Positions 600-10,512 of a stretch of 24,000 bases of DNA are shown one piece after another. Numbering within the stretch: position 1 is the stretch's first letter; each line of letters opens with the position of its first letter. Below the pieces are notes generated by a model. That model was not told where the DNA came from. It saw nothing but the letters and a program-made list of their open reading frames with translations, and searched no databases. Position numbers and translations under genes: made by a program. Source of the stretch: Stellaceae bacterium (GTDB lineage: Bacteria > Pseudomonadota > Alphaproteobacteria > ATCC43930 > CGMCC-115725); assembly GCA_035491935.1 (NCBI GenBank), contig DATJJW010000061.1, forward strand, positions 1 to 24,000, in the 5' to 3' direction.

Positions 600-856
600 C
601 CTGATCCGGAAGCGGCCGCGCCAAAGTCTCTGAACGGCGCGGAATCCTTCCGGTGGGCTGGCCATAGGTCGTCTTTTTTCTATTCCTTACGGTACCGCCG
701 CTTCGGCCGTTACGATGGCCGTTGCCACATCCCGTCGCGGGTGCTACCGAGAATGTCCTATAATTCGCCGTCGCGTTGCAATGCGGGCCGTGCGGGACAC
801 ATTGACCTTCCCTCATTGGCATAAGCATAAGCAACGCCAAGGTATCGGAGGGCGCA

Positions 857-1057
857 ATGAAGGACATGGAAAAGCGGACATCAAGTTCCTTTTGGAACAT
901 ATTGCAGCTACTGCCGTTTATCGGGCTGCTCTGGCTGCCCTTCTATAATTTCAAGGGACCGTCGCTCGGCGGGTTCCCGTTCTTCTACTGGTACCAGTTC
1001 GCCTGGGTGCCGGTGACGTCCTTCCTGATCTACCTCGGCTATAGGAAGATGAAATGA
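857..1057 (+). CDS. DUF3311-like small membrane protein (symporter-associated)
   Basis: 66 aa with two hydrophobic helices and an FFYWYQFAW motif. GGAGGG RBS lies before the ATG. Its stop overlaps the start of the downstream symporter (ATGA at 1054-1057), the usual DUF3311 + SSS arrangement. Confidence 0.7.
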   Translation: MKDMEKRTSSSFWNILQLLPFIGLLWLPFYNFKGPSLGGFPFFYWYQFAWVPVTSFLIYLGYRKMK

Positions 1058-2625
1058 GCGCCTCGATCAATGTGACGGCGCTGGCTGTCTTCATCTTCTT
1101 CTTCGTGCTGATCACGGTCCTGGGCTTCGTCGCCGCGCGCTGGCGCCGGGGCGATCTCAATCAGCTCCATGAATGGGGTCTCGGCGGCCGCCGCTTCGGC
1201 ACGATCATCACCTGGTTCCTGGTCGGCGGCGACTTCTATACGGCCTATACCATCATCGCCGTGCCGGCGCTGGTCTATGCGGTCGGCGCCTATGGCTTCT
1301 TCGCCTTGCCCTATACGATCGTCGTCTATCCGCTGGTCTATCAGATCATGCCGCGGCTGTGGGCGGTGTGTCAGAAGCACAGCTATGTGACGGCGGCGGA
1401 TTTCGTCGAAGGTCGCTATGGCAGCTCCTGGCTGGCGCTGGCCGTGGCCCTGACCGGCATGCTCGCCACCATGCCGTATATCGCGCTGCAACTGGTCGGC
1501 ATGCAGGTGGTCATCGCGGCGCTGGGCCTGGGCGGCAGCGGATGGCAGGGCGATATACCGCTGGTCATCGCTTTCGTCATCCTGGCGGTCTACACCTATG
1601 CTTCGGGCCTGCGGGCGCCGGCGATGATCGCCTTCGTCAAGGATATCATGATCTATATCGTGGTGATCGCGGCGATCGCGATCATCCCTTTCAGCCTGGG
1701 TGGCTACGGCGCCGTGTTCGATGCGGCGGACAAGGCGTTCCAGGCCAAGGGCGGCGCCACCGGCCTGCTGCTCCAGCCGGCACAGTTCGTGCCCTTCGCG
1801 ACGCTGGCGCTCGGTTCGGCCTTCGCGGCCTTCATGTATCCCCACACCATGACCGGCGTGCTGTCCTCGTCGAGCGGCGATGTCGTACGCCGCAATGCGA
1901 TGCTGCTGCCGCTCTACACCATCCTGCTGGGCCTGATCGCCCTGCTGGGTTACATGGCGATCGCGGCAGGCATCTCGGTCAAGTCGGCGACCGAGGTGGT
2001 GCCGGCCTTGTTCCTCAAGATCTTCCCGGATTGGTTCGTGGGCTTCAGCTTCGCCGCGATCGCGATCGGCGCCCTGGTGCCGGCCTCGATCATGTCGATC
2101 GGCGCTTCCAACCTGTTCGCGCGCAATGTCTGGCGGACCTTCGTCAACCCGTCGATCTCGCCGGAGAGCGAGGCTTCCATGGCCAAGCTGGTGTCGTTGC
2201 TGGTCAAGTTCGGCGCGCTGGCATTCGTCGTGTGGCTGCCGACGCAATTCGCGATCTACCTGCAGCTGTTGGGCGGCGTCTGGATCATGCAGACCTTCCC
2301 GGCCATCGTCTTCGGCCTCTACAAGACGCGGATGCGTCCGGCGGCGCTGCTGCTCGGCTGGGCGGTCGGCATGGCGGTGGGCACGTGGATGGCCTATGCG
2401 GTCGGGCTGAAGCCGGTCTATCCGCTGGTCATCGGCGGTACGAGCTACAGCGTCTATATCGGTCTGATCGCCGGGGCCTTGAACCTGGCCGTCAGCGTGG
2501 TGGTCACCCTGCTGCTCGCCGCCATCGGCATCGGTGCCGGGCGGGACGATACGCGGCCGGAAGACTTCCATGTGTCGAAGGCCGGCAGTGCGCCGGAGAT
2601 CAATCCCGTGACCGAGGCGTTCTAA
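1054..2625 (+). CDS. sodium:solute symporter (SSS) family transporter
   Basis: 523 aa with about 13 hydrophobic segments. The N-terminal 'GGRRFG...WFLVGGDFYTAYT' motif is typical of SSS proteins. Translationally coupled to the DUF3311 ORF. GC3-rich frame. Confidence 0.85.
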   Translation: MSASINVTALAVFIFFFVLITVLGFVAARWRRGDLNQLHEWGLGGRRFGTIITWFLVGGDFYTAYTIIAVPALVYAVGAYGFFALPYTIVVYPLVYQIMPRLWAVCQKHSYVTAADFVEGRYGSSWLALAVALTGMLATMPYIALQLVGMQVVIAALGLGGSGWQGDIPLVIAFVILAVYTYASGLRAPAMIAFVKDIMIYIVVIAAIAIIPFSLGGYGAVFDAADKAFQAKGGATGLLLQPAQFVPFATLALGSAFAAFMYPHTMTGVLSSSSGDVVRRNAMLLPLYTILLGLIALLGYMAIAAGISVKSATEVVPALFLKIFPDWFVGFSFAAIAIGALVPASIMSIGASNLFARNVWRTFVNPSISPESEASMAKLVSLLVKFGALAFVVWLPTQFAIYLQLLGGVWIMQTFPAIVFGLYKTRMRPAALLLGWAVGMAVGTWMAYAVGLKPVYPLVIGGTSYSVYIGLIAGALNLAVSVVVTLLLAAIGIGAGRDDTRPEDFHVSKAGSAPEINPVTEAF

Positions 2626-2955: not shown

Positions 2956-3200
2956 TAGTTTGATTAAAATGTGGTTAACGTGATGTCCCTGGGAACGCGA
3001 CTATTTGAATGCTGAAATAAATCCAGCCTTCCGAAACCTCGCCGCTGTGTGCGGGAGGAAACTATTTTTCGCGATCTCTGGTCTATGAATTTTGATACGT
3101 CAGCAACGTAGAGCTGTGCGCGCCTTGCGGGTCATTGAAACCGATTTATCGGTAGAGAAAGGACTTTCCCGCCGTTGCGGTGCGATCAGGAGAGGGTGCT

Positions 3201-4367
3201 ATGGTGAATGATAAACGGCGACCGTCGCAATTGTCCGCGGATGATTCGAGCCGTTACATCAAGGAAGCCGTAGCCCGACGTTCTCCACCGCCGCCGACAT
3301 CCGACCCCTCGTTCATCGTCGGCAACAGTCCGCAGATGCTCGAGGTTTTCGACCGCATCAGGCGATTTGCGCCCTATGAATTGCCGGTCCTGATCACTGG
3401 CGAAAGCGGCACGGGCAAGGAACTGGTCGCCAAGGCCATCCACGAACGATCCGGCCGGGCGTCGGGTCCCTTCGTCGCCGTGAATTGCGCCGGCATGCCT
3501 GCCACCCTGATCGCGTCGGAGCTGTTTGGCTATGAGAAGGGGGCCTTCACCGGTGCGCTCGCCCGAAAACGCGGGCTTGTCGAGCAGGCGGCGAATGGCA
3601 CGCTGCTCCTGGACGAGATCGGCGACATGCCCTTCGATCTCCAGGGCCATTTGCTGCGGTTCCTGCAAGAGGAAGAGATCGTCCGCGTCGGCGGCCATGA
3701 ACCGGTCAAGGTGAGCGTCCGCGTGATCGCGGCGACCAACGTCAAGATGGCCGATGCCGTGGCGGCCGGGCGTCTGCGCGAGGATCTGTTCTACCGCCTC
3801 AACGTGCTCAGCCTGCATCTGCCGCCGCTGCGCCTGCGCGCGGGGGACATTCCGATCCTGGTGAATTATTTCCTGGAGACGATCGCGCGCGAACTGCATC
3901 GGCCGAAGCCGCAGATAAGCCCATTGGCCGTCGCCGCGCTGGAAGCCCATCGCTGGCCCGGCAACATACGCGAGCTGATCGCCACGCTGCGTCGTGCCAT
4001 CGTGCTCTGCAACGACGATTTGATCGAGACGGGCGACCTCGGTATGGAATTCGCCGAAGCGCCATCCAGCCAGCCGATCAAGCTCATGCCCGACCGGCCG
4101 CGTCCCGGATCGGAAGAGGAGCGCGCTTTGCTGCTCGATACGCTGGGCGACCACGGGTGGAACATCACGCGCTGCGCGCAAGTGCTCAACGTTTCCCGCG
4201 TGACGCTCTATCGCATGCTCGAGCGCCAAGGTCTCAATGTCAGCGATGAGGGCAAGAGCCCCGGTCTCGCCCGCGGCCGGACCGGCATGCGCCCGGCACC
4301 CATGGGGTTGACGACGCGCGCCGAAGGCAAGCCGTCCTACCCGCTTCTACGCCCCGACGGCATCTGA
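3201..4367 (+). CDS. sigma-54-dependent transcriptional activator (bEBP) with AAA+ and Fis-type HTH domains and no N-terminal sensory/receiver domain
   Basis: ATG at 3201 follows CAGGAGAGGG. Motifs present: Walker A GESGTGKE, the sigma-54 contact loop GYEKGAFTGA, DEIGDM (Walker B), REDLFYRLNV, and C-terminal HTH NITRCAQVLNVSRVTLYRMLERQGL. Only about 45 aa precede the AAA+ core. Confidence 0.9.
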   Translation: MVNDKRRPSQLSADDSSRYIKEAVARRSPPPPTSDPSFIVGNSPQMLEVFDRIRRFAPYELPVLITGESGTGKELVAKAIHERSGRASGPFVAVNCAGMPATLIASELFGYEKGAFTGALARKRGLVEQAANGTLLLDEIGDMPFDLQGHLLRFLQEEEIVRVGGHEPVKVSVRVIAATNVKMADAVAAGRLREDLFYRLNVLSLHLPPLRLRAGDIPILVNYFLETIARELHRPKPQISPLAVAALEAHRWPGNIRELIATLRRAIVLCNDDLIETGDLGMEFAEAPSSQPIKLMPDRPRPGSEEERALLLDTLGDHGWNITRCAQVLNVSRVTLYRMLERQGLNVSDEGKSPGLARGRTGMRPAPMGLTTRAEGKPSYPLLRPDGI

Positions 4368-4608: not shown

Positions 4609-5664
4609 ATGCGTAAATTCTTTCTTTTGACGGTGTCTGTGTTCGCTATGACCAGCGTTGCCGCATACGCCGACGAGCATAACGGCGGTAACAATAACGG
4701 CAACAATGGTGGCGACCCCGGCAAGAGCCATACGCCGCCGAGCCTGGAGCAGTACCTCTCGGTCGCGGTCGCGGTGAACTATGCCGATTCGTCTGACAAC
4801 GACCATTCGCTCTCGAACGGCCAGAAGAACTCCGCTCAGATCGGCTCGTCGTTCCAAGGGGCTGAAGGCGTCTCCAACCAGAACCAGAATGCCGGCGCCA
4901 ACAGCGCGCTGCAGAACTCGCTGTCGCTGGCCTATGTCCAGGGCTGCGCCTGCGGCACGACCGTCGGCGGCGGTTCCAAGGATGGTTCGAGCGGTTCGAT
5001 CGGCGATGCGGCGGCCTTTGCCGCGGCCCTGAATTTCGGCTCGATCGAGGAAGCCGGTGGTGTCCATATCGACGACCCGCACAGCTATCATTCGGCGCCG
5101 ACTTCGGCATCGGCGACGATCAACAACGGTGCCTATAACGGCTTCACCGGCGCGGCGCAGGTGAACCAGAATGCCGGTGCCGGCTCGCTGCTGCAAAACG
5201 CCACGGCGCTGGCCTCGGTCAACCCGATCTCCGGCACGATCGACCAGACCAAGGTGGCACTCGGCCTCGCGCTCAATGACGGCTCGGTCACGGACAACGC
5301 GGTTTCCAACGACCAGCACAACACCACGAGCGCCATCGACGGCTCGTTCAACAACATGAAGGGTGTTGCGAACGTCAACCAGAACGCGGCCGCCAACTCG
5401 CTGCTGCAGAATTCGACGGCGATTTCGTCGATCGAATACTGCAACTGCGCGGCGACCGATCTCAGCGCTTCGGCGGCCCTCAGCGCCAATATCGGTAATG
5501 TGAACGACAACAGCTTCAGCGCCACCAATGGCTCGAACGCCACCACGATGAACGGGTCGTTCAACGGCTCGCAGGGCGTGATGCAGATCTCGCAGAACGC
5601 GGGCGCCAACAGCCTGCTGCAAAATGCAGCTTCGGTGGCCGTCATCACGCAAGTCGCGCACTAA
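4609..5664 (+). CDS. secreted Asn/Gln/Gly/Ser/Ala-rich four-repeat protein; candidate major fibre/amyloid subunit (FapC-like architecture)
   Basis: ATG at 4609 follows GGGAGAAATGGGAGA. Signal peptide is MRKFFLLTVSVFAMTSVAAYA|DE. There are four imperfect repeats, each ending GxxGVxxVNQNAGANSLLQNxxA. The protein is 351 aa and almost devoid of charged or aromatic residues. The ORF-track start at 4390 lies upstream of the sigma-54 promoter and was rejected. Confidence 0.8.
   Translation: MRKFFLLTVSVFAMTSVAAYADEHNGGNNNGNNGGDPGKSHTPPSLEQYLSVAVAVNYADSSDNDHSLSNGQKNSAQIGSSFQGAEGVSNQNQNAGANSALQNSLSLAYVQGCACGTTVGGGSKDGSSGSIGDAAAFAAALNFGSIEEAGGVHIDDPHSYHSAPTSASATINNGAYNGFTGAAQVNQNAGAGSLLQNATALASVNPISGTIDQTKVALGLALNDGSVTDNAVSNDQHNTTSAIDGSFNNMKGVANVNQNAAANSLLQNSTAISSIEYCNCAATDLSASAALSANIGNVNDNSFSATNGSNATTMNGSFNGSQGVMQISQNAGANSLLQNAASVAVITQVAH
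4756..5661 (+). repeat. four imperfect ~70-90-aa protein repeats (R1-R4) within the major subunit gene
   Basis: Core motifs: NQNAGANSALQN (DNA 4876-4920), VNQNAGAGSLLQN (5161-5202), VNQNAAANSLLQN (5374-5415) and SQNAGANSLLQN (5587-5628). Each repeat starts with an alternating hydrophobic strand: AVAVAVNYA, AAFAAALNFG, VALGLALNDG, ASAALSANIG. Confidence 0.8.
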
Positions 5665-5807: not shown

Positions 5808-6128
5808 ATGACGAGAAACATCCGGGTGCTCACCGCCATGGCCGTCGCGGTGGGAATGCTGAAGCTTCCGGTGATTGCTTATGCCGATCCTCTACCTGTT
5901 CCGCCCGTCTCGCTGAGCGATCTGCAAGACAGCGCCGCCAAGGGCCTGCCGGACAATTTGAACTCGGCACAGGTCTCGGCCAATTCCGTGGGCACCAACA
6001 CGGTGACGGGCATCATCAGCAATGCCGGCTCACTCAACAACAATAGCGGGCTGACCACCGTCCTGCAGAATACCGGCAACAATTCGCTGTTCCAGACCTC
6101 GACGGTCATGAACATCACGATCCATTAG
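5808..6128 (+). CDS. small secreted single-repeat paralogue of the major subunit (candidate nucleator/minor subunit)
   Basis: Signal peptide is MTRNIRVLTAMAVAVGMLKLPVIAYA|DP. The mature part ends SLNNNSGLTTVLQNTGNNSLFQTSTVMNITIH, which aligns with SFNGSQGVMQISQNAGANSLLQNAASVAVITQVAH of the major subunit. RBS AGAAGGA. Confidence 0.75.
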   Translation: MTRNIRVLTAMAVAVGMLKLPVIAYADPLPVPPVSLSDLQDSAAKGLPDNLNSAQVSANSVGTNTVTGIISNAGSLNNNSGLTTVLQNTGNNSLFQTSTVMNITIH

Positions 6129-6151: not shown

Positions 6152-6859
6152 ATGCTGCGACCGATACGCCTCATGCTTGCCTGCCTTTGCGGCGGTCTCG
6201 GCCTGGCGGGGATCGTCGCTTCGGCTTATGCCGGCGACATGACCCTCACCAGCGAGATAACCGGCTCGACGGCGTTCCATGTGCCCGTGAAGAGCTTCAA
6301 GGAATTGAAGTTCGTGCACACCTTGCATCAGCAGGTCGATTATTCCTGCGGCGCAGCGGCGATCGCGACCTTGCTGACATATTCCTACGGCAAGCCCGTG
6401 GCCGAGCGGACCGTGTTGCAGGACATGCTCGACCACGGCGACAAGCAGGTCATCCAGACCAAGGGCTTCTCGCTGCTCGACATACGCAACTACCTTGCCC
6501 GGCAGGGTCTGCAGTCAGGCGGCTACCGGTTGCCGCTGGACAAGATCCCCGAGGTCGCCGTTCCCGGCATCGTCCTCATCAACCACAATGGCTACAACCA
6601 CTTCGTCGTGGTCGACGGGTTCAAGGATGGCCGCCTGCTGCTGGCCGACCCGTCCTTGGGCGCCCGGACCGTCGATGTCGACACGTTCAAGCGCGAATGG
6701 ACGGGGGTCTATTTCGTGATCCTCACCGGCGCCGACGACGCCAGGCGCAAATTCAATCTCAAGGAGGATTGGTCGCTTCAGGGACATGGCACCTGGGACC
6801 GGTTCCGCGACACGTTCGACCTGGCGCGGCTGAGCTTCAAAAGCGCTGATGCATTCTGA
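6152..6859 (+). CDS. periplasmic stand-alone C39 family cysteine peptidase (FapD-like)
   Basis: GAGGAGG RBS. Signal peptide ends ...IVASAYA|G. Catalytic elements: Gln/Cys region HQQVDYSCGAAAIATLLTY, His region NGYNHFVVVDG, Asp in LLLADPS. No ABC transporter domains are attached. Confidence 0.8.
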   Translation: MLRPIRLMLACLCGGLGLAGIVASAYAGDMTLTSEITGSTAFHVPVKSFKELKFVHTLHQQVDYSCGAAAIATLLTYSYGKPVAERTVLQDMLDHGDKQVIQTKGFSLLDIRNYLARQGLQSGGYRLPLDKIPEVAVPGIVLINHNGYNHFVVVDGFKDGRLLLADPSLGARTVDVDTFKREWTGVYFVILTGADDARRKFNLKEDWSLQGHGTWDRFRDTFDLARLSFKSADAF

Positions 6860-6873
6860 TTGGGGGCAAGACC

Positions 6874-7632
6874 ATGAGAATAAGCCATGCTCTCTATCCC
6901 GCGGTCGCAGCGTTATCCCTGTTGGTGATGCGCGACGCCTATGCGGATGTTCCAGGCAGATCCGGCCCGGCGCCCAAAGCCGTCGATCTCTTCGACTATT
7001 ACGCGCCCGGTGTCGTTCCCGGGCCGAAGGCGAGCGTCCATGAGGCCGCGGCGAGTACCCGGTTATCCGTCCAGCCGGCGCCTGTCCAGTCGGTGTTTGC
7101 CCAGTCAGCGCCCGTCCAGTCAGCGCCCGTCCAGGCAACACCTGCCCAATCGGCACCCATCCAATTGGCGATGGCGAACGAGATACCGGCCGACCAGCTG
7201 GGCGATATCCGTGGCGGCTTCTCCCTGCCCAGCGGCATGGAGATCAGCTTCGGCTTCGACATCGCCACACGGGTCGGCGGCGATGTCGTGCAGCAATTGA
7301 GCGTGCCGATGACGAATGTGCCGGGCACGGGTTCCTCGGTGCCGCTATCCGTGCTGTCGCAGGGGGCGTCGAGCTCCGTTCAGCTCTCGCTTGGCTCCGC
7401 GGCGCCCGTATCGGTGTCCTCGCTCGCCAATACCGGCCTCACCTCGATCACCACCACGCTGGGTGCCGGCGGGATCTCGTCGCTCATCCAGAACCAGGCG
7501 AACGGTCAGGTCATCCAGCAGACCCGCGTGCTCGACGTGTCGATCAGCGGGCTTACGCAATCCCTGGCACAGCAGGCCGCGCACACCATGATGGTCAATG
7601 CGCTCGCGGCCGCTTCCATGCCGCGTCATTGA
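6874..7632 (+). CDS. secreted protein with an xAPxQ pentapeptide array, an internal double-glycine motif and a degenerate QN repeat (position equivalent to FapE)
   Basis: Signal peptide ends ...LLVMRDAYA|DV. The Ser/Gly/Thr/Gln-rich C-terminal half includes GGISSLIQNQANGQVIQQTRV. There is a 14-nt gap to the C39 gene. GC3-rich frame. Confidence 0.7.
   Translation: MRISHALYPAVAALSLLVMRDAYADVPGRSGPAPKAVDLFDYYAPGVVPGPKASVHEAAASTRLSVQPAPVQSVFAQSAPVQSAPVQATPAQSAPIQLAMANEIPADQLGDIRGGFSLPSGMEISFGFDIATRVGGDVVQQLSVPMTNVPGTGSSVPLSVLSQGASSSVQLSLGSAAPVSVSSLANTGLTSITTTLGAGGISSLIQNQANGQVIQQTRVLDVSISGLTQSLAQQAAHTMMVNALAAASMPRH
7075..7164 (+). repeat. six tandem 15-bp units encoding PAPVQ SVFAQ SAPVQ SAPVQ ATPAQ SAPIQ
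   Basis: Direct reading of 7075-7164. Two adjacent units (TCAGCGCCCGTCCAG) are identical. Confidence 0.85.
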
Positions 7633-7640
7633 GGGACGAG

Positions 7641-7961
7641 ATGCAGCGCTTTCCGTACATTTCCAAATACGCCGCCAGGTGGGTCGCCCGCCTGACGCTC
7701 GGCCTGCTTTGCCTGTTGCCGTTCCAGCCGGCAAGGGCGGCGGATGGCGTGGTCGAAGTCGCCACGCCGGTGATGCCGATAACCGACAAGCCGGTGCCTG
7801 TCGAAGACCTGGCAGGACAGGCCGCGCGCGGTACCCCGCCGGGCCTGCCGGTCCTGCAGGAGAAACCCAAGCCGACCATCCGGCTCTGGGATGAAGTGAG
7901 TATTAGCCACGCCCTACCCAATCAGGGTACCATCAATTCAACAACGATGACGGTCCATTAA
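7641..7961 (+). CDS. small exported protein of unknown function (cluster accessory)
   Basis: ATG at 7641 follows GAGGGACGAG. Signal peptide is ...LGLLCLLPFQPARA|AD. The middle is Pro-rich. The C-terminus GTINSTTMTVH resembles the ...STVMNITIH end of the 5808 product. The TTG at 7629 in the ORF track is less likely. Confidence 0.6.
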   Translation: MQRFPYISKYAARWVARLTLGLLCLLPFQPARAADGVVEVATPVMPITDKPVPVEDLAGQAARGTPPGLPVLQEKPKPTIRLWDEVSISHALPNQGTINSTTMTVH

Positions 7962-8583: not shown

Positions 8584-9996
8584 ATGGGCAAGAAAATTCA
8601 CCGTTGGGCCACCTTTGTCCTTCTGGTCGCTGCCGAGCTTCCTTGGGCGGGAGCGGCGTCGGCACAGGCCGTGACGGCGAAGGATTTCGACGAGCTGCGC
8701 ACGCTGCTGCGTCGCCAGCAGCGCCAGATCGACCAGCAGGCCCAGCAGTTGCACGAGCAATCGAACGAGCTAAGGGCGCAAACCCGTCAGATCCAGGCGC
8801 AGCGGCGCCAGCTCGACCAGTTGCAGGGGCACCCGAATGCCCAGGGGCGGAAAAGACTGGCGGGTTCGACGGGCACGGCGGTGGTGGCAGCTCCCGTCGT
8901 ATCGCCGTCCCCGCAGGCCGCCACGCCGCAACCATCTGCCGAGGTGGTGCGTGCCCAAGTGGCCGAGAACCCGGAGGTTGCCCGCGAACGCGAGCGCGAG
9001 CAGCAGAACCGCATCGCCCAGACCAATACCAGCCTGGCGCGCACCGGCGGCGTGCTGACCCAGAAGGGGACTTTGCTGATCGAGCCGTCGCTCGAATACG
9101 ATTACCAATCGCAGCGTCAGGCCGTGGTGAGCGGTTTCACCATCATTCCCGGCATCACCTTCGGCAACATCAACATCACCAAGACGCAGCAGAGCACCCT
9201 GACCCAGGCGATGACGTTCCGCTACGGGGTGACCGACCGGCTGGAGCTTAATGTCCGCGTGCCCTTCGTCTATACGACGGCGTCGACCACCACCGGCAAT
9301 ATCACCCAGAACGCGCAACCGATCACGGTGCAGTCCGAAGGGCATTCGCTGGGCGACGTGGAATTCGGCGGCAGCTACCAGATCAATTCCGGTCAGCAGG
9401 GATGGCCGATCTTCGTCGGTAATCTGCGGGTAAAGACGATCACCGGGCGCGACCCCTTTTCCGTGCCGATCTACACGATCAACGATCCGAACGGTGCGTT
9501 CCTGCAGGGTATCCAGAAGGAGACGCCGACGGGCACCGGCTTCTATTCGGTCGAGCCGAGCATGACGGTGCTGTATCCGAGCGACCCGATCATCCTGTTC
9601 GGCAATCTGCGCTACATCCACAACATACCGCGCACCGTCAACGTCCAAAGCAGCACCGGCGACGCGCCGACGCCGACCAGCCTGCATCCCGGCGACGGCA
9701 TCGGCGCCAATTTCGGCTTAGGTTTCGCCTTCAACGAGAAAGCGTCGCTCAGCCTGAGCTATGAGGAAGTGCATGTCTTCAATTCGTCGAGCAACCACGT
9801 GTCGATCGGCGGGTCCAGCTATGATTTGGGAACACTCAATTTCGGCCTCGGCTATCAGCTCACGCCGAAGGTCAGCGTGAATCTCAGTGCCGGGATCGGC
9901 GTCACGCCTGATACCCCGGCGGCCAAGATCCTGCTCTCCGTCCCGGTCCACCTGCCCCTGTTCGGGCCGGCGGTGGGCGCCAATCATTCGTCCTGA
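8584..9996 (+). CDS. outer-membrane beta-barrel protein with an N-terminal coiled coil (FapF-like / MetA-pathway-type barrel)
   Basis: ATG at 8584 follows GGGGGA. Signal peptide ends ...AGAASAQA|V. A 7-heptad coiled coil spans residues 35-80, followed by a Pro/Ala-rich linker. The C-terminal ~300 aa show alternating beta-strand patterns (LLIEPSLEYDYQS, LELNVRVPFVY, GDVEFGGSYQI, LSLSYEEVHVF, LNFGLGYQLTP). The ORF-track start at 8452 overlaps the previous gene and lacks a signal peptide. Confidence 0.75.
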   Translation: MGKKIHRWATFVLLVAAELPWAGAASAQAVTAKDFDELRTLLRRQQRQIDQQAQQLHEQSNELRAQTRQIQAQRRQLDQLQGHPNAQGRKRLAGSTGTAVVAAPVVSPSPQAATPQPSAEVVRAQVAENPEVAREREREQQNRIAQTNTSLARTGGVLTQKGTLLIEPSLEYDYQSQRQAVVSGFTIIPGITFGNINITKTQQSTLTQAMTFRYGVTDRLELNVRVPFVYTTASTTTGNITQNAQPITVQSEGHSLGDVEFGGSYQINSGQQGWPIFVGNLRVKTITGRDPFSVPIYTINDPNGAFLQGIQKETPTGTGFYSVEPSMTVLYPSDPIILFGNLRYIHNIPRTVNVQSSTGDAPTPTSLHPGDGIGANFGLGFAFNEKASLSLSYEEVHVFNSSSNHVSIGGSSYDLGTLNFGLGYQLTPKVSVNLSAGIGVTPDTPAAKILLSVPVHLPLFGPAVGANHSS

Positions 9997-10023
9997 TTTC
10001 AACGTCATCCGAGGAGCGATGCC

Positions 10024-10512
10024 ATGCCCGTTCATCATGACAATGCAGATATCGGCGACAGCACGATCTCCAGTAGTTGGCGACGCGCAAGGCGGCGACG
10101 CCTGCGCATCCTGCTCGCCGATGGCGATCTCGTTCACATGGAACTGCTCAGCATGATGCTCGAGCCCGATCATGCCGTGATCGGCGCGCTGGCCGAAGGG
10201 GCCTATGTCGTCGAGATGATCGCGCGGGCGAAGCCCGATATCGCCATCATCGACATCGGCATGCCCGGTTTCCGAGGTATAGCGGCGACGTGGCGTCTCC
10301 AGCAGATCGCCCCCGAGACGAAGCTGGTCGTCCTGACGACGGATGCCAGGTTCGAATGCATCCGCGGCGTCCTCAGTGCCGGTGCGATGGCCTATCTGGT
10401 CAAGCCGGTGTCGGTCGCGGAACTGCACAAGGCCATCGCTTTCGTCGCGCAAGGCGGAAAATATCTGCCGGCCTCGATCGCCGGGGGGAAGCCGGACATC
10501 CTCATGCAGTAG
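10024..10512 (+). CDS. stand-alone response-regulator receiver (REC) domain protein with NarL/FixJ-type REC and no output domain
   Basis: GAGGAG RBS 7 nt upstream. Receiver motifs: RILLADGD, PDIAIIDIGMPG (phospho-acceptor Asp), KLVVLTT, AMAYLVKP. The protein ends soon after the 'GGKYLPASIA' linker with no HTH. It starts 27 nt after the barrel gene. Confidence 0.8.
   Translation: MPVHHDNADIGDSTISSSWRRARRRRLRILLADGDLVHMELLSMMLEPDHAVIGALAEGAYVVEMIARAKPDIAIIDIGMPGFRGIAATWRLQQIAPETKLVVLTTDARFECIRGVLSAGAMAYLVKPVSVAELHKAIAFVAQGGKYLPASIAGGKPDILMQ

Follow-up and report, generated by a model that had tools for sequence, protein, structure and literature searches.

The analyzed window spans 24,000 nucleotides of a Stellaceae bacterium genome (assembly GCA_035491935.1, contig DATJJW010000061.1, positions 1 to 24,000 of the forward strand) and features a co-directional gene cluster that is distantly related to the functional-amyloid operon fapABCDEF of Pseudomonas (Table 1). 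A σ54 activator is followed by a major repeat subunit with weak matches to the FapB/FapC models NF058557 and NF058558, a 106-aa single-repeat small subunit, a stand-alone C39 cysteine peptidase of 235 aa with its own signal peptide, a 252-aa protein in the fapE position, two small ORFs and a FapF-like outer-membrane barrel with an N-terminal coiled coil, the presumed export channel. The peptidase scores 74.5 bits against Pfam PF03412 (cut-off 22) and matches the FapD model NF058616 at 4e-44, where its 150.4 bits remain below the equivalog cut-off of 330 bits, so that it is FapD-like rather than an equivalog. The barrel similarly matches NF058560 (FapF) at 6.7e-46, below the model cut-off, as well as Pfam Phenol_MetA_deg. 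The cluster has neither a FapA match nor an ABC transporter.

Table 1. Features of the Fap-like cluster in window coordinates
Position	Strand	Feature	Details
3180-4367		σ54 activator	
4609-5664	+	Major FapC/FapB-like repeat subunit	
5808-6128	+	Single-repeat small subunit, 106 aa	Degenerate leader remnant VSLSDLQDSAAKG
6152-6859	+	FapD-like C39 peptidase, 235 aa	Catalytic residues Gln60, Cys66, His150, Asp166
6347-6349		Cys66 of the peptidase	
6599-6601		His150 of the peptidase	
6647-6649		Asp166 of the peptidase	
6874-7632	+	FapE-like ORF, 252 aa	
6874-6945	+	Predicted Sec-type signal peptide	Residues 1-24, MRISHALYPAVAALSLLVMRDAYA, cut predicted after AYA, next residue D25
6946-7182	+	Pro-region	Residues 25-103
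6982-7005		Conserved VDLxxYYA element	
7067-7134		15-bp x 4.5 tandem repeat	Encodes the Pro/Ala/Gln pentapeptide spacer
7183-7218	+	Double-glycine leader-type motif	Residues 104-115, IPADQLGDIRGG, positions -12 to -1; predicted scissile bond between G115 and F116
7219-7632	+	Predicted mature FapE-like domain	F116-H252, 137 aa
8584-9996	+	FapF-like barrel	

A double-glycine leader-type motif behind a Sec signal

The 252-aa protein begins with a Sec-like signal peptide, recognized directly in the sequence from its n-region, hydrophobic core and A-x-A site and supported by homologues that align with their own signal peptides, and continues through a low-complexity pro-region into the motif and a Ser/Gly/Gln-rich domain. 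The motif features hydrophobic residues at positions -12 (I104), -7 (L109) and -4 (I112), Gln in place of Glu at -8 and G114-G115 at -2/-1, and is followed by Phe. The preliminary description had placed such a leader-like motif at these residues, at the junction between the pentapeptide spacer and the C-terminal domain, and its observation and coordinates are confirmed here. Its side remark on the two GG dipeptides following the signal peptide of the major subunit does not hold, as these score -31 and -34 bits and bear no resemblance to the leader.

The similarity to classical leaders is not explained by chance. A loose pattern, [LIVM]x3[EQD][LM]x2[LIVM]xGG, occurs 36 times in 3.65 million six-frame positions of this genome, or 0.0024 expected matches in a protein of this size, and a position matrix built from homologues, leaving out the window's own sequence, scores the site at 31.9 bits, whereas the next best of 4.6 million positions in the genome scores 16.8 bits. 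The major subunit, the 106-aa, 110-aa and 168-aa proteins and the barrel score between -6 and -19 bits at best, with -14 bits for the 106-aa protein and -6 bits for the barrel, and are thus rejected as leader carriers in this genome, where only the 252-aa protein has the tag. In contrast, the curated bacteriocin-leader profile TIGR01847 returns no match in the whole genome at E up to 10, and a search of short motif peptides against NCBIfam gave a single weak hit, that of one relative's peptide to the GG-leader family TIGR04149 (E 0.089).

The reading frame deserves comment, as a public gene caller starts the gene at M100, yielding a 153-aa protein that begins MANEIPADQLGDIRGG and in which the motif would resemble a classical N-terminal leader. 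We reject this start: the closest homologues share the N-terminal signal peptide and a VDLxxYYA(R)xLGL element with Y43 invariant, GGGGG lies 8-12 nt before the upstream ATG whereas no Shine-Dalgarno-like sequence precedes M100, and in all relatives the motif lies behind a signal peptide. The lower GC3 of the upstream part (0.69 vs. 0.87) probably misled the caller.

To assess the predicted structural context, we built an AlphaFold2 model from a 75-sequence alignment (mean pLDDT 72.9). Residues 1-93 are disordered, with pLDDT of about 45-60 for the pro-region, residues 106-113 (positions -10 to -3) form a helix, the GGFS segment (114-117) has pLDDT below 50, and a confident beta domain (123-225) and a helix (227-247) follow with pLDDT of about 85-95 across 123-247. 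The predicted mature domain includes a Q/N-rich strand pair (GISSLIQNQANGQVIQQ) that resembles the subunit repeat, but no solved fold matches it (best Foldseek E-value 0.09), so that the fold provides no functional hint. The arrangement around the motif mirrors the LahT150-leader co-crystal, where residues -4 to -11 form a two-turn helix that places V-4, L-7 and L-12 in a hydrophobic groove while residues -1 to -3 run extended into a narrowing cleft (PMC6363468).

Conservation and linkage to FapD-type peptidases

Conservation of the motif in orthologues had been set beforehand as a criterion, and it is strongly borne out: the motif is the conservation peak of its family. Whereas a word-index homologue search found only 2 proteins, an exhaustive profile search found 325 relatives (E <= 1e-3), all unnamed or hypothetical. 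Of the best 150, 141 (clusters at 50% identity or less) contain the motif and the rest are N-terminally truncated fragments or spurious hits. Over these 141 representatives, position -12 is L in 76, V in 37, I in 14 and M in 11 (138 in total), -11 is most frequently S (44), -8 is E in 54 and Q in 47 (101), -7 is L in 133, -4 is I in 46, M in 38, V in 28 and L in 19 (131), -3 is R in all 141, -2 is G in 129 and A in 12, -1 is G in 140 and A in 1, and +1 is F in 110; as a dipeptide, -2/-1 were recorded as GG in 129, AG in 12 and GA in 1. In the 75-sequence alignment, with a mean column identity of 19%, the only invariant columns are R113, G115 and G226, although the residues after the site (F, then xLPxG, and FGF) are also conserved. 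The length of the region preceding the site varies widely, with the site lying from 27 to about 350 residues from the N-terminus (median 66). A search for related loci by exact peptide patterns found nothing with the peptidase, whereas a two-sequence alignment identified the nearest named genomes with this protein family, both Acetobacteraceae: Roseomonas nitratireducens and an Acidocella MAG, at 39-41% identity and both carrying the motif.

The motif further travels with FapD-type peptidase genes. In a sample of 401 genomes of the same class, 32 have a FapD-like match, and in 16 alphaproteobacterial loci the gene directly downstream of the peptidase carries [LVIM]xxx[EQD]Lxx(h)RGG followed by [FYLM]. 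Searching the same sample with the family profile gave 17 genomes, all of them among the 32 and each with the match within about 1-2 kb of the peptidase gene, and an independent metagenome contig shows the same operon layout including the σ54 activator. The neighboring peptidase itself aligns with the solved double-glycine protease LahT150 (6MPZ, E 9e-10), its closest solved relative, and keeps the Gln, Cys, His and Asp columns.

Nor is the tag confined to FapE-like proteins. In several operons the single-repeat small subunit directly upstream of the peptidase carries an ELxxxRG[GA..]-type leader behind its own signal peptide: ISENQMSQLRGG followed by A, LTLEELSAERGG followed by T, ALSDLATVRGG followed by S and NVLADQRGG followed by T, along with RGA, RGE, RGM, RGT, RGR and RGK variants. 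In FapD/FapF loci that lack a FapE-like gene, other small signal-peptide proteins next to the peptidase carry very classical versions behind their signal peptides, namely LSDTQMDSVVGG followed by Q, MTDAEMDGVVGG followed by T, MSEAALGNVTGG followed by L and LSEAQMDSVAAG followed by G; this holds in 9 of 11 such loci, against 0.034 matches expected per protein. One FapF-like barrel has LNDRALADIRGG followed by Q in its periplasmic arm. A motif that moves between unrelated proteins but stays beside one enzyme family is best read as that enzyme's recognition signal.

A proposed periplasmic processing site

In light of these results, we propose that the 252-aa protein is the FapE-equivalent of a divergent alphaproteobacterial Fap-type operon. 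Following Sec export and signal peptide removal after A24, residues 104-113 would form a short amphipathic helix whose hydrophobic face (I104, L109 and I112) docks in the leader-binding groove of the neighboring periplasmic peptidase, the extended R113-G114-G115 segment would enter the narrow active-site cleft, and cleavage after G115 would remove a 91-residue disordered pro-region (residues 25-115) and release a 137-residue beta-rich protein that leaves through the FapF-like barrel, where it starts or anchors fiber assembly. The motif, its conservation, its linkage to FapD genes, the intact catalytic residues and the predicted helix and domain boundary come directly from the analysis, whereas binding, cleavage, the exact scissile bond and the coupling to export are inferred, with no biochemical evidence of cleavage for this protein or any relative. 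We hold recognition by FapD and cleavage at or next to the GG to be more likely than not, though well short of certain. The interpretation of the preliminary description, that the motif is a candidate substrate site for the adjacent C39 peptidase in the periplasm, is thus supported, with the corrections that cleavage remains an inference and that the arrangement is not unusual for this family, as had been claimed: a Sec signal followed by a GG-type leader is the rule next to FapD-type peptidases.

The main doubts stem from position -1, which is Arg or Lys in canonical FapE and can be A, E, M, T, R or K in the small subunits of related operons. This does not fit the narrow S1 pocket of classical C39 domains and would need a wider pocket, a shifted scissile bond or a docking-only role, and the conserved core may be [ED]LxxhRG. 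The conservation of the residues after the site could also mean that the segment belongs to the fold or to another interaction. We looked for FapD columns that track GG vs. G[RK] in 29 enzyme/substrate pairs, where more than 20 columns separate the groups perfectly because the groups are two clades, so that covariation could not be distinguished from clade membership and says nothing about an S1 pocket.

Of the alternatives, the one that survives best, though unlikely, is that the motif is a docking or secretion-targeting signal recognized by FapD acting as a chaperone, or by the FapF coiled coil, without being cut at the GG, the N-terminal loss of FapE then happening elsewhere or through another protease. 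The variable -1 residue, beside an [ED]LxxhRG core that stays conserved, is in line with this view, as are the non-cleaving, substrate-binding C39-like domains of HlyB-type transporters (cited in PMC5557850) and the proposal by Rouse et al. that the lost N-terminus of FapE is a FapF-targeting sequence. However, the peptidase here keeps the full catalytic set, the catalytic Cys is required in Pseudomonas, the -2/-1 residues in this family are the small ones that a C39 cleft demands, and the GG segment is predicted to be flexible and sits at a domain boundary. Less likely still, FapD may cut within the motif at a different bond, for example between G114 and G115, so that the variable residue becomes P1': R(-3) and G(-2) are the most conserved positions across FapE-like proteins, canonical FapE and the small subunits, but the hydrophobic positions and E/Q at -8 are in exact classical register only if the cut follows the second Gly, which is near-invariant within this family. 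That the resemblance is fortuitous, or that the segment is only a structural turn of the FapE fold unrelated to the peptidase, is very doubtful despite the conserved downstream residues, given the chance expectation above, the recurrence of the motif in proteins with unrelated mature parts next to FapD genes and the low model confidence of the GG segment, which lies outside the folded core. A cytoplasmic precursor starting at M100 and exported by a peptidase-ABC transporter is the least tenable, in view of the gene-start evidence and of a cluster that has no ABC transporter and whose only C39 protein is stand-alone and bears a signal peptide.

A broader and more tentative reading, which we consider possible but less likely than not, is that a Sec signal followed by a double-glycine-type leader is a general two-step address label: the first part would take the cargo across the inner membrane and the second would be read in the periplasm by FapD-type peptidases, its removal being mechanically coupled to threading through the FapF-type barrel, as an outer-membrane counterpart of the peptidase-containing ABC exporters. 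Any protein carrying the tag, including FapE-like proteins, small fiber subunits, unrelated small proteins and even the N-terminal arm of some FapF barrels, would then be cargo or a regulated part of the machine, and the long pro-region with its conserved VDLxxYYA element would be an additional, removable control module.

Relation to bacteriocin leaders, FapE and curli

The motif shares with the leaders of ComC/ComA, class II bacteriocins and LahA/LahT150, which are cut by C39 domains of AMS/PCAT ABC transporters, the 12-residue register (Leu-12-X3-Glu-8-Leu-7 and Gly-Gly, consensus from PMC6363468, with Gln at -8 here), a predicted two-turn helix followed by an extended P3-P1, and a partner enzyme with the same C39 fold and Gln/Cys/His/Asp set. 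It differs in that the tag is internal, behind a Sec signal peptide and a 79-residue pro-region rather than at the N-terminus of a cytoplasmic precursor, the peptidase is predicted to be a free periplasmic protein rather than a domain of an inner-membrane exporter, Arg at -3 and Phe at +1 are near-invariant, which classical leaders do not show, the cargo is a 137-residue protein predicted to be folded rather than a small peptide, and the curated leader profile does not detect it. Curli CsgB/CsgF-type nucleator and anchor proteins, offered here by analogy only, are likewise minor secreted components of an amyloid fiber system with a subunit-like Q/N-rich segment, but there is no known sequence relation, and curli are not known to involve a peptidase or propeptide processing.

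With the Pseudomonas Fap system the cluster shares the gene order of subunits, peptidase, E-position protein and barrel, while adding the σ54 activator and the two small ORFs between the last two. The window protein does not match the FapE model NF058559 (cut-off 250 bits) even at E up to 10, although one alphaproteobacterial intermediate does so at 1.3e-16. A profile-profile comparison (hhalign) of its family with 13 canonical or near-canonical FapE sequences nevertheless gives 90% probability (E 1.4e-6), but only over 41 columns around the motif, aligning qLg.iRGGF.lp.Gv.V.FGF with ELa.mRGRY.V....v.FGv and relating the region to FapE residues of about 27-67. Canonical FapE proteins, those over the model cut-off, read LKDxE[LM]AxLRG[RK] followed by YVMPGR, starting about six residues after the signal peptide, so that the leader-like helix and the Arg-Gly are shared but not the -1 residue.

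Processing of FapE by FapD has been suspected previously: FapD Cys38 is required for secretion in Pseudomonas, and FapE is the only Fap protein lacking N-terminal peptides in mass spectrometry, over its first ~70 residues, yet the same 2017 structural study stated that Fap proteins lack canonical C39 sequences (PMC5557850) and a 2018 review considered the FapD substrate "yet to be determined" (PMC6173800). A conserved canonical site is not described in the papers we could search. The family presented here shows a canonical, strongly conserved double-glycine leader in the FapE position and by homology points to residues of about 27-41 of Pseudomonas FapE (ELxxLRG[RK], then Y) as the equivalent site, thus turning a general idea into a single-bond prediction. 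It also extends the bacteriocin-type leader/C39 logic, as inferred from sequence, from the cytoplasmic face of ABC exporters to the periplasm and suggests how secretion of biofilm amyloid is licensed, which matters for biofilm control. In one canonical FapE sequence the tryptic peptides between the predicted cut (residue 40) and residue 69 are a 6-mer and a hydrophobic 23-mer, from which we infer that the published peptide gap is compatible with a cut at residue 40.

Conserved elements of the pro-region and the predicted gene start

The pro-region that would be removed upon cleavage contains a second conserved element, VDLxxYYA(R)xLGL, which reads VDLFDYYA in the window protein, is shared by its closest homologues and features a tyrosine, Y43, that is invariant in 9 sequences. 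The AlphaFold2 model assigns this element a short helix (residues 39-43), and it could serve as a docking site for another cluster protein or for the barrel’s coiled coil. A public gene call (P0001) instead starts the gene at M100 to yield a protein of 153 aa, thus removing both the signal peptide and the pro-region and making the protein look like a classical leader peptide precursor; GC3 of the pro-region is 0.69, against 0.87 downstream. The pro-region can apparently also be very long: in the related locus L057 (genome G214, contig C7), a FapE-like protein has the motif about 350-440 residues from the start of the open frame, although the latter overlaps the peptidase gene and the true start is therefore uncertain.

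Coordinates of the additional features (L-numbers denote related loci, with genome and contig in parentheses where given)
Feature	Locus	Position	Residues	Strand
VDLFDYYA element of the pro-region	Window	6982-7005	37-44	
106-aa single-repeat subunit, with its degenerate leader remnant, VSLSDLQDSAAKG, at the residues given	Window	5808-6128	~33-46	
Public gene call P0001	Window	7171-7632		
Small ORF after the FapE-like gene	Window	7629-7961		
Small ORF after the FapE-like gene	L056	635-1066		-
Small ORF after the FapE-like gene	L095	6659-6892		
C-terminal His	Window	7630-7632		
FapF-like barrel with leader motif	L105 (G200:C24)	+722..2119 relative to FapD	164	
Listed together with the L105 barrel	L038	2055-3452		
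FapE-like protein with distant motif	L057 (G214:C7)	8722-10437		

Leader-like motifs in other proteins of the cluster and of related operons

Orthologues of the 106-aa single-repeat subunit (L071, L065, L074, L056 and L095) carry an ELxxxRG[G/A/E/M/T/R/K] leader behind their signal peptide, whereas the window’s copy retains only a degenerate remnant that scores -14 bits; this subunit may have escaped processing in this lineage. In an operon without a FapE-like gene, a FapF-like barrel carries a full leader motif, LNDRALADIRGG↓Q (the arrow here and below marks the predicted scissile bond), in its periplasmic N-terminal arm, which fits the published alternative that FapD may cut FapF. In two further loci, L063 (G252:C4) and L069 (G380:C11), two FapE-like paralogues lie in tandem after one peptidase gene and each has its own RGG↓F motif (MSRGELDENRGG↓F and MSRDELDGARGG↓F; MSRAELDESRGG↓F and MSSDELDRHRGG↓F).

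Downstream small ORF and C-terminal residues

The small ORF after the FapE-like gene is conserved in position and shares a (V/Q)LWDE(L/V/F) element in three operons, while no family matches it. In genome G014 it also contains TVLAAQRGA↓G, which resembles the leader core of that genome’s other two tagged proteins, with all three featuring Gln at -4. Finally, several cargo-like proteins in related operons (relatives L004, L019, L036, L071 and L074) end in His (…RVLFH, …GIAGH, …GITGH, …NINIH, …INHH), as does the window protein; this is not a rule, as others end in Q, Y, N or R.
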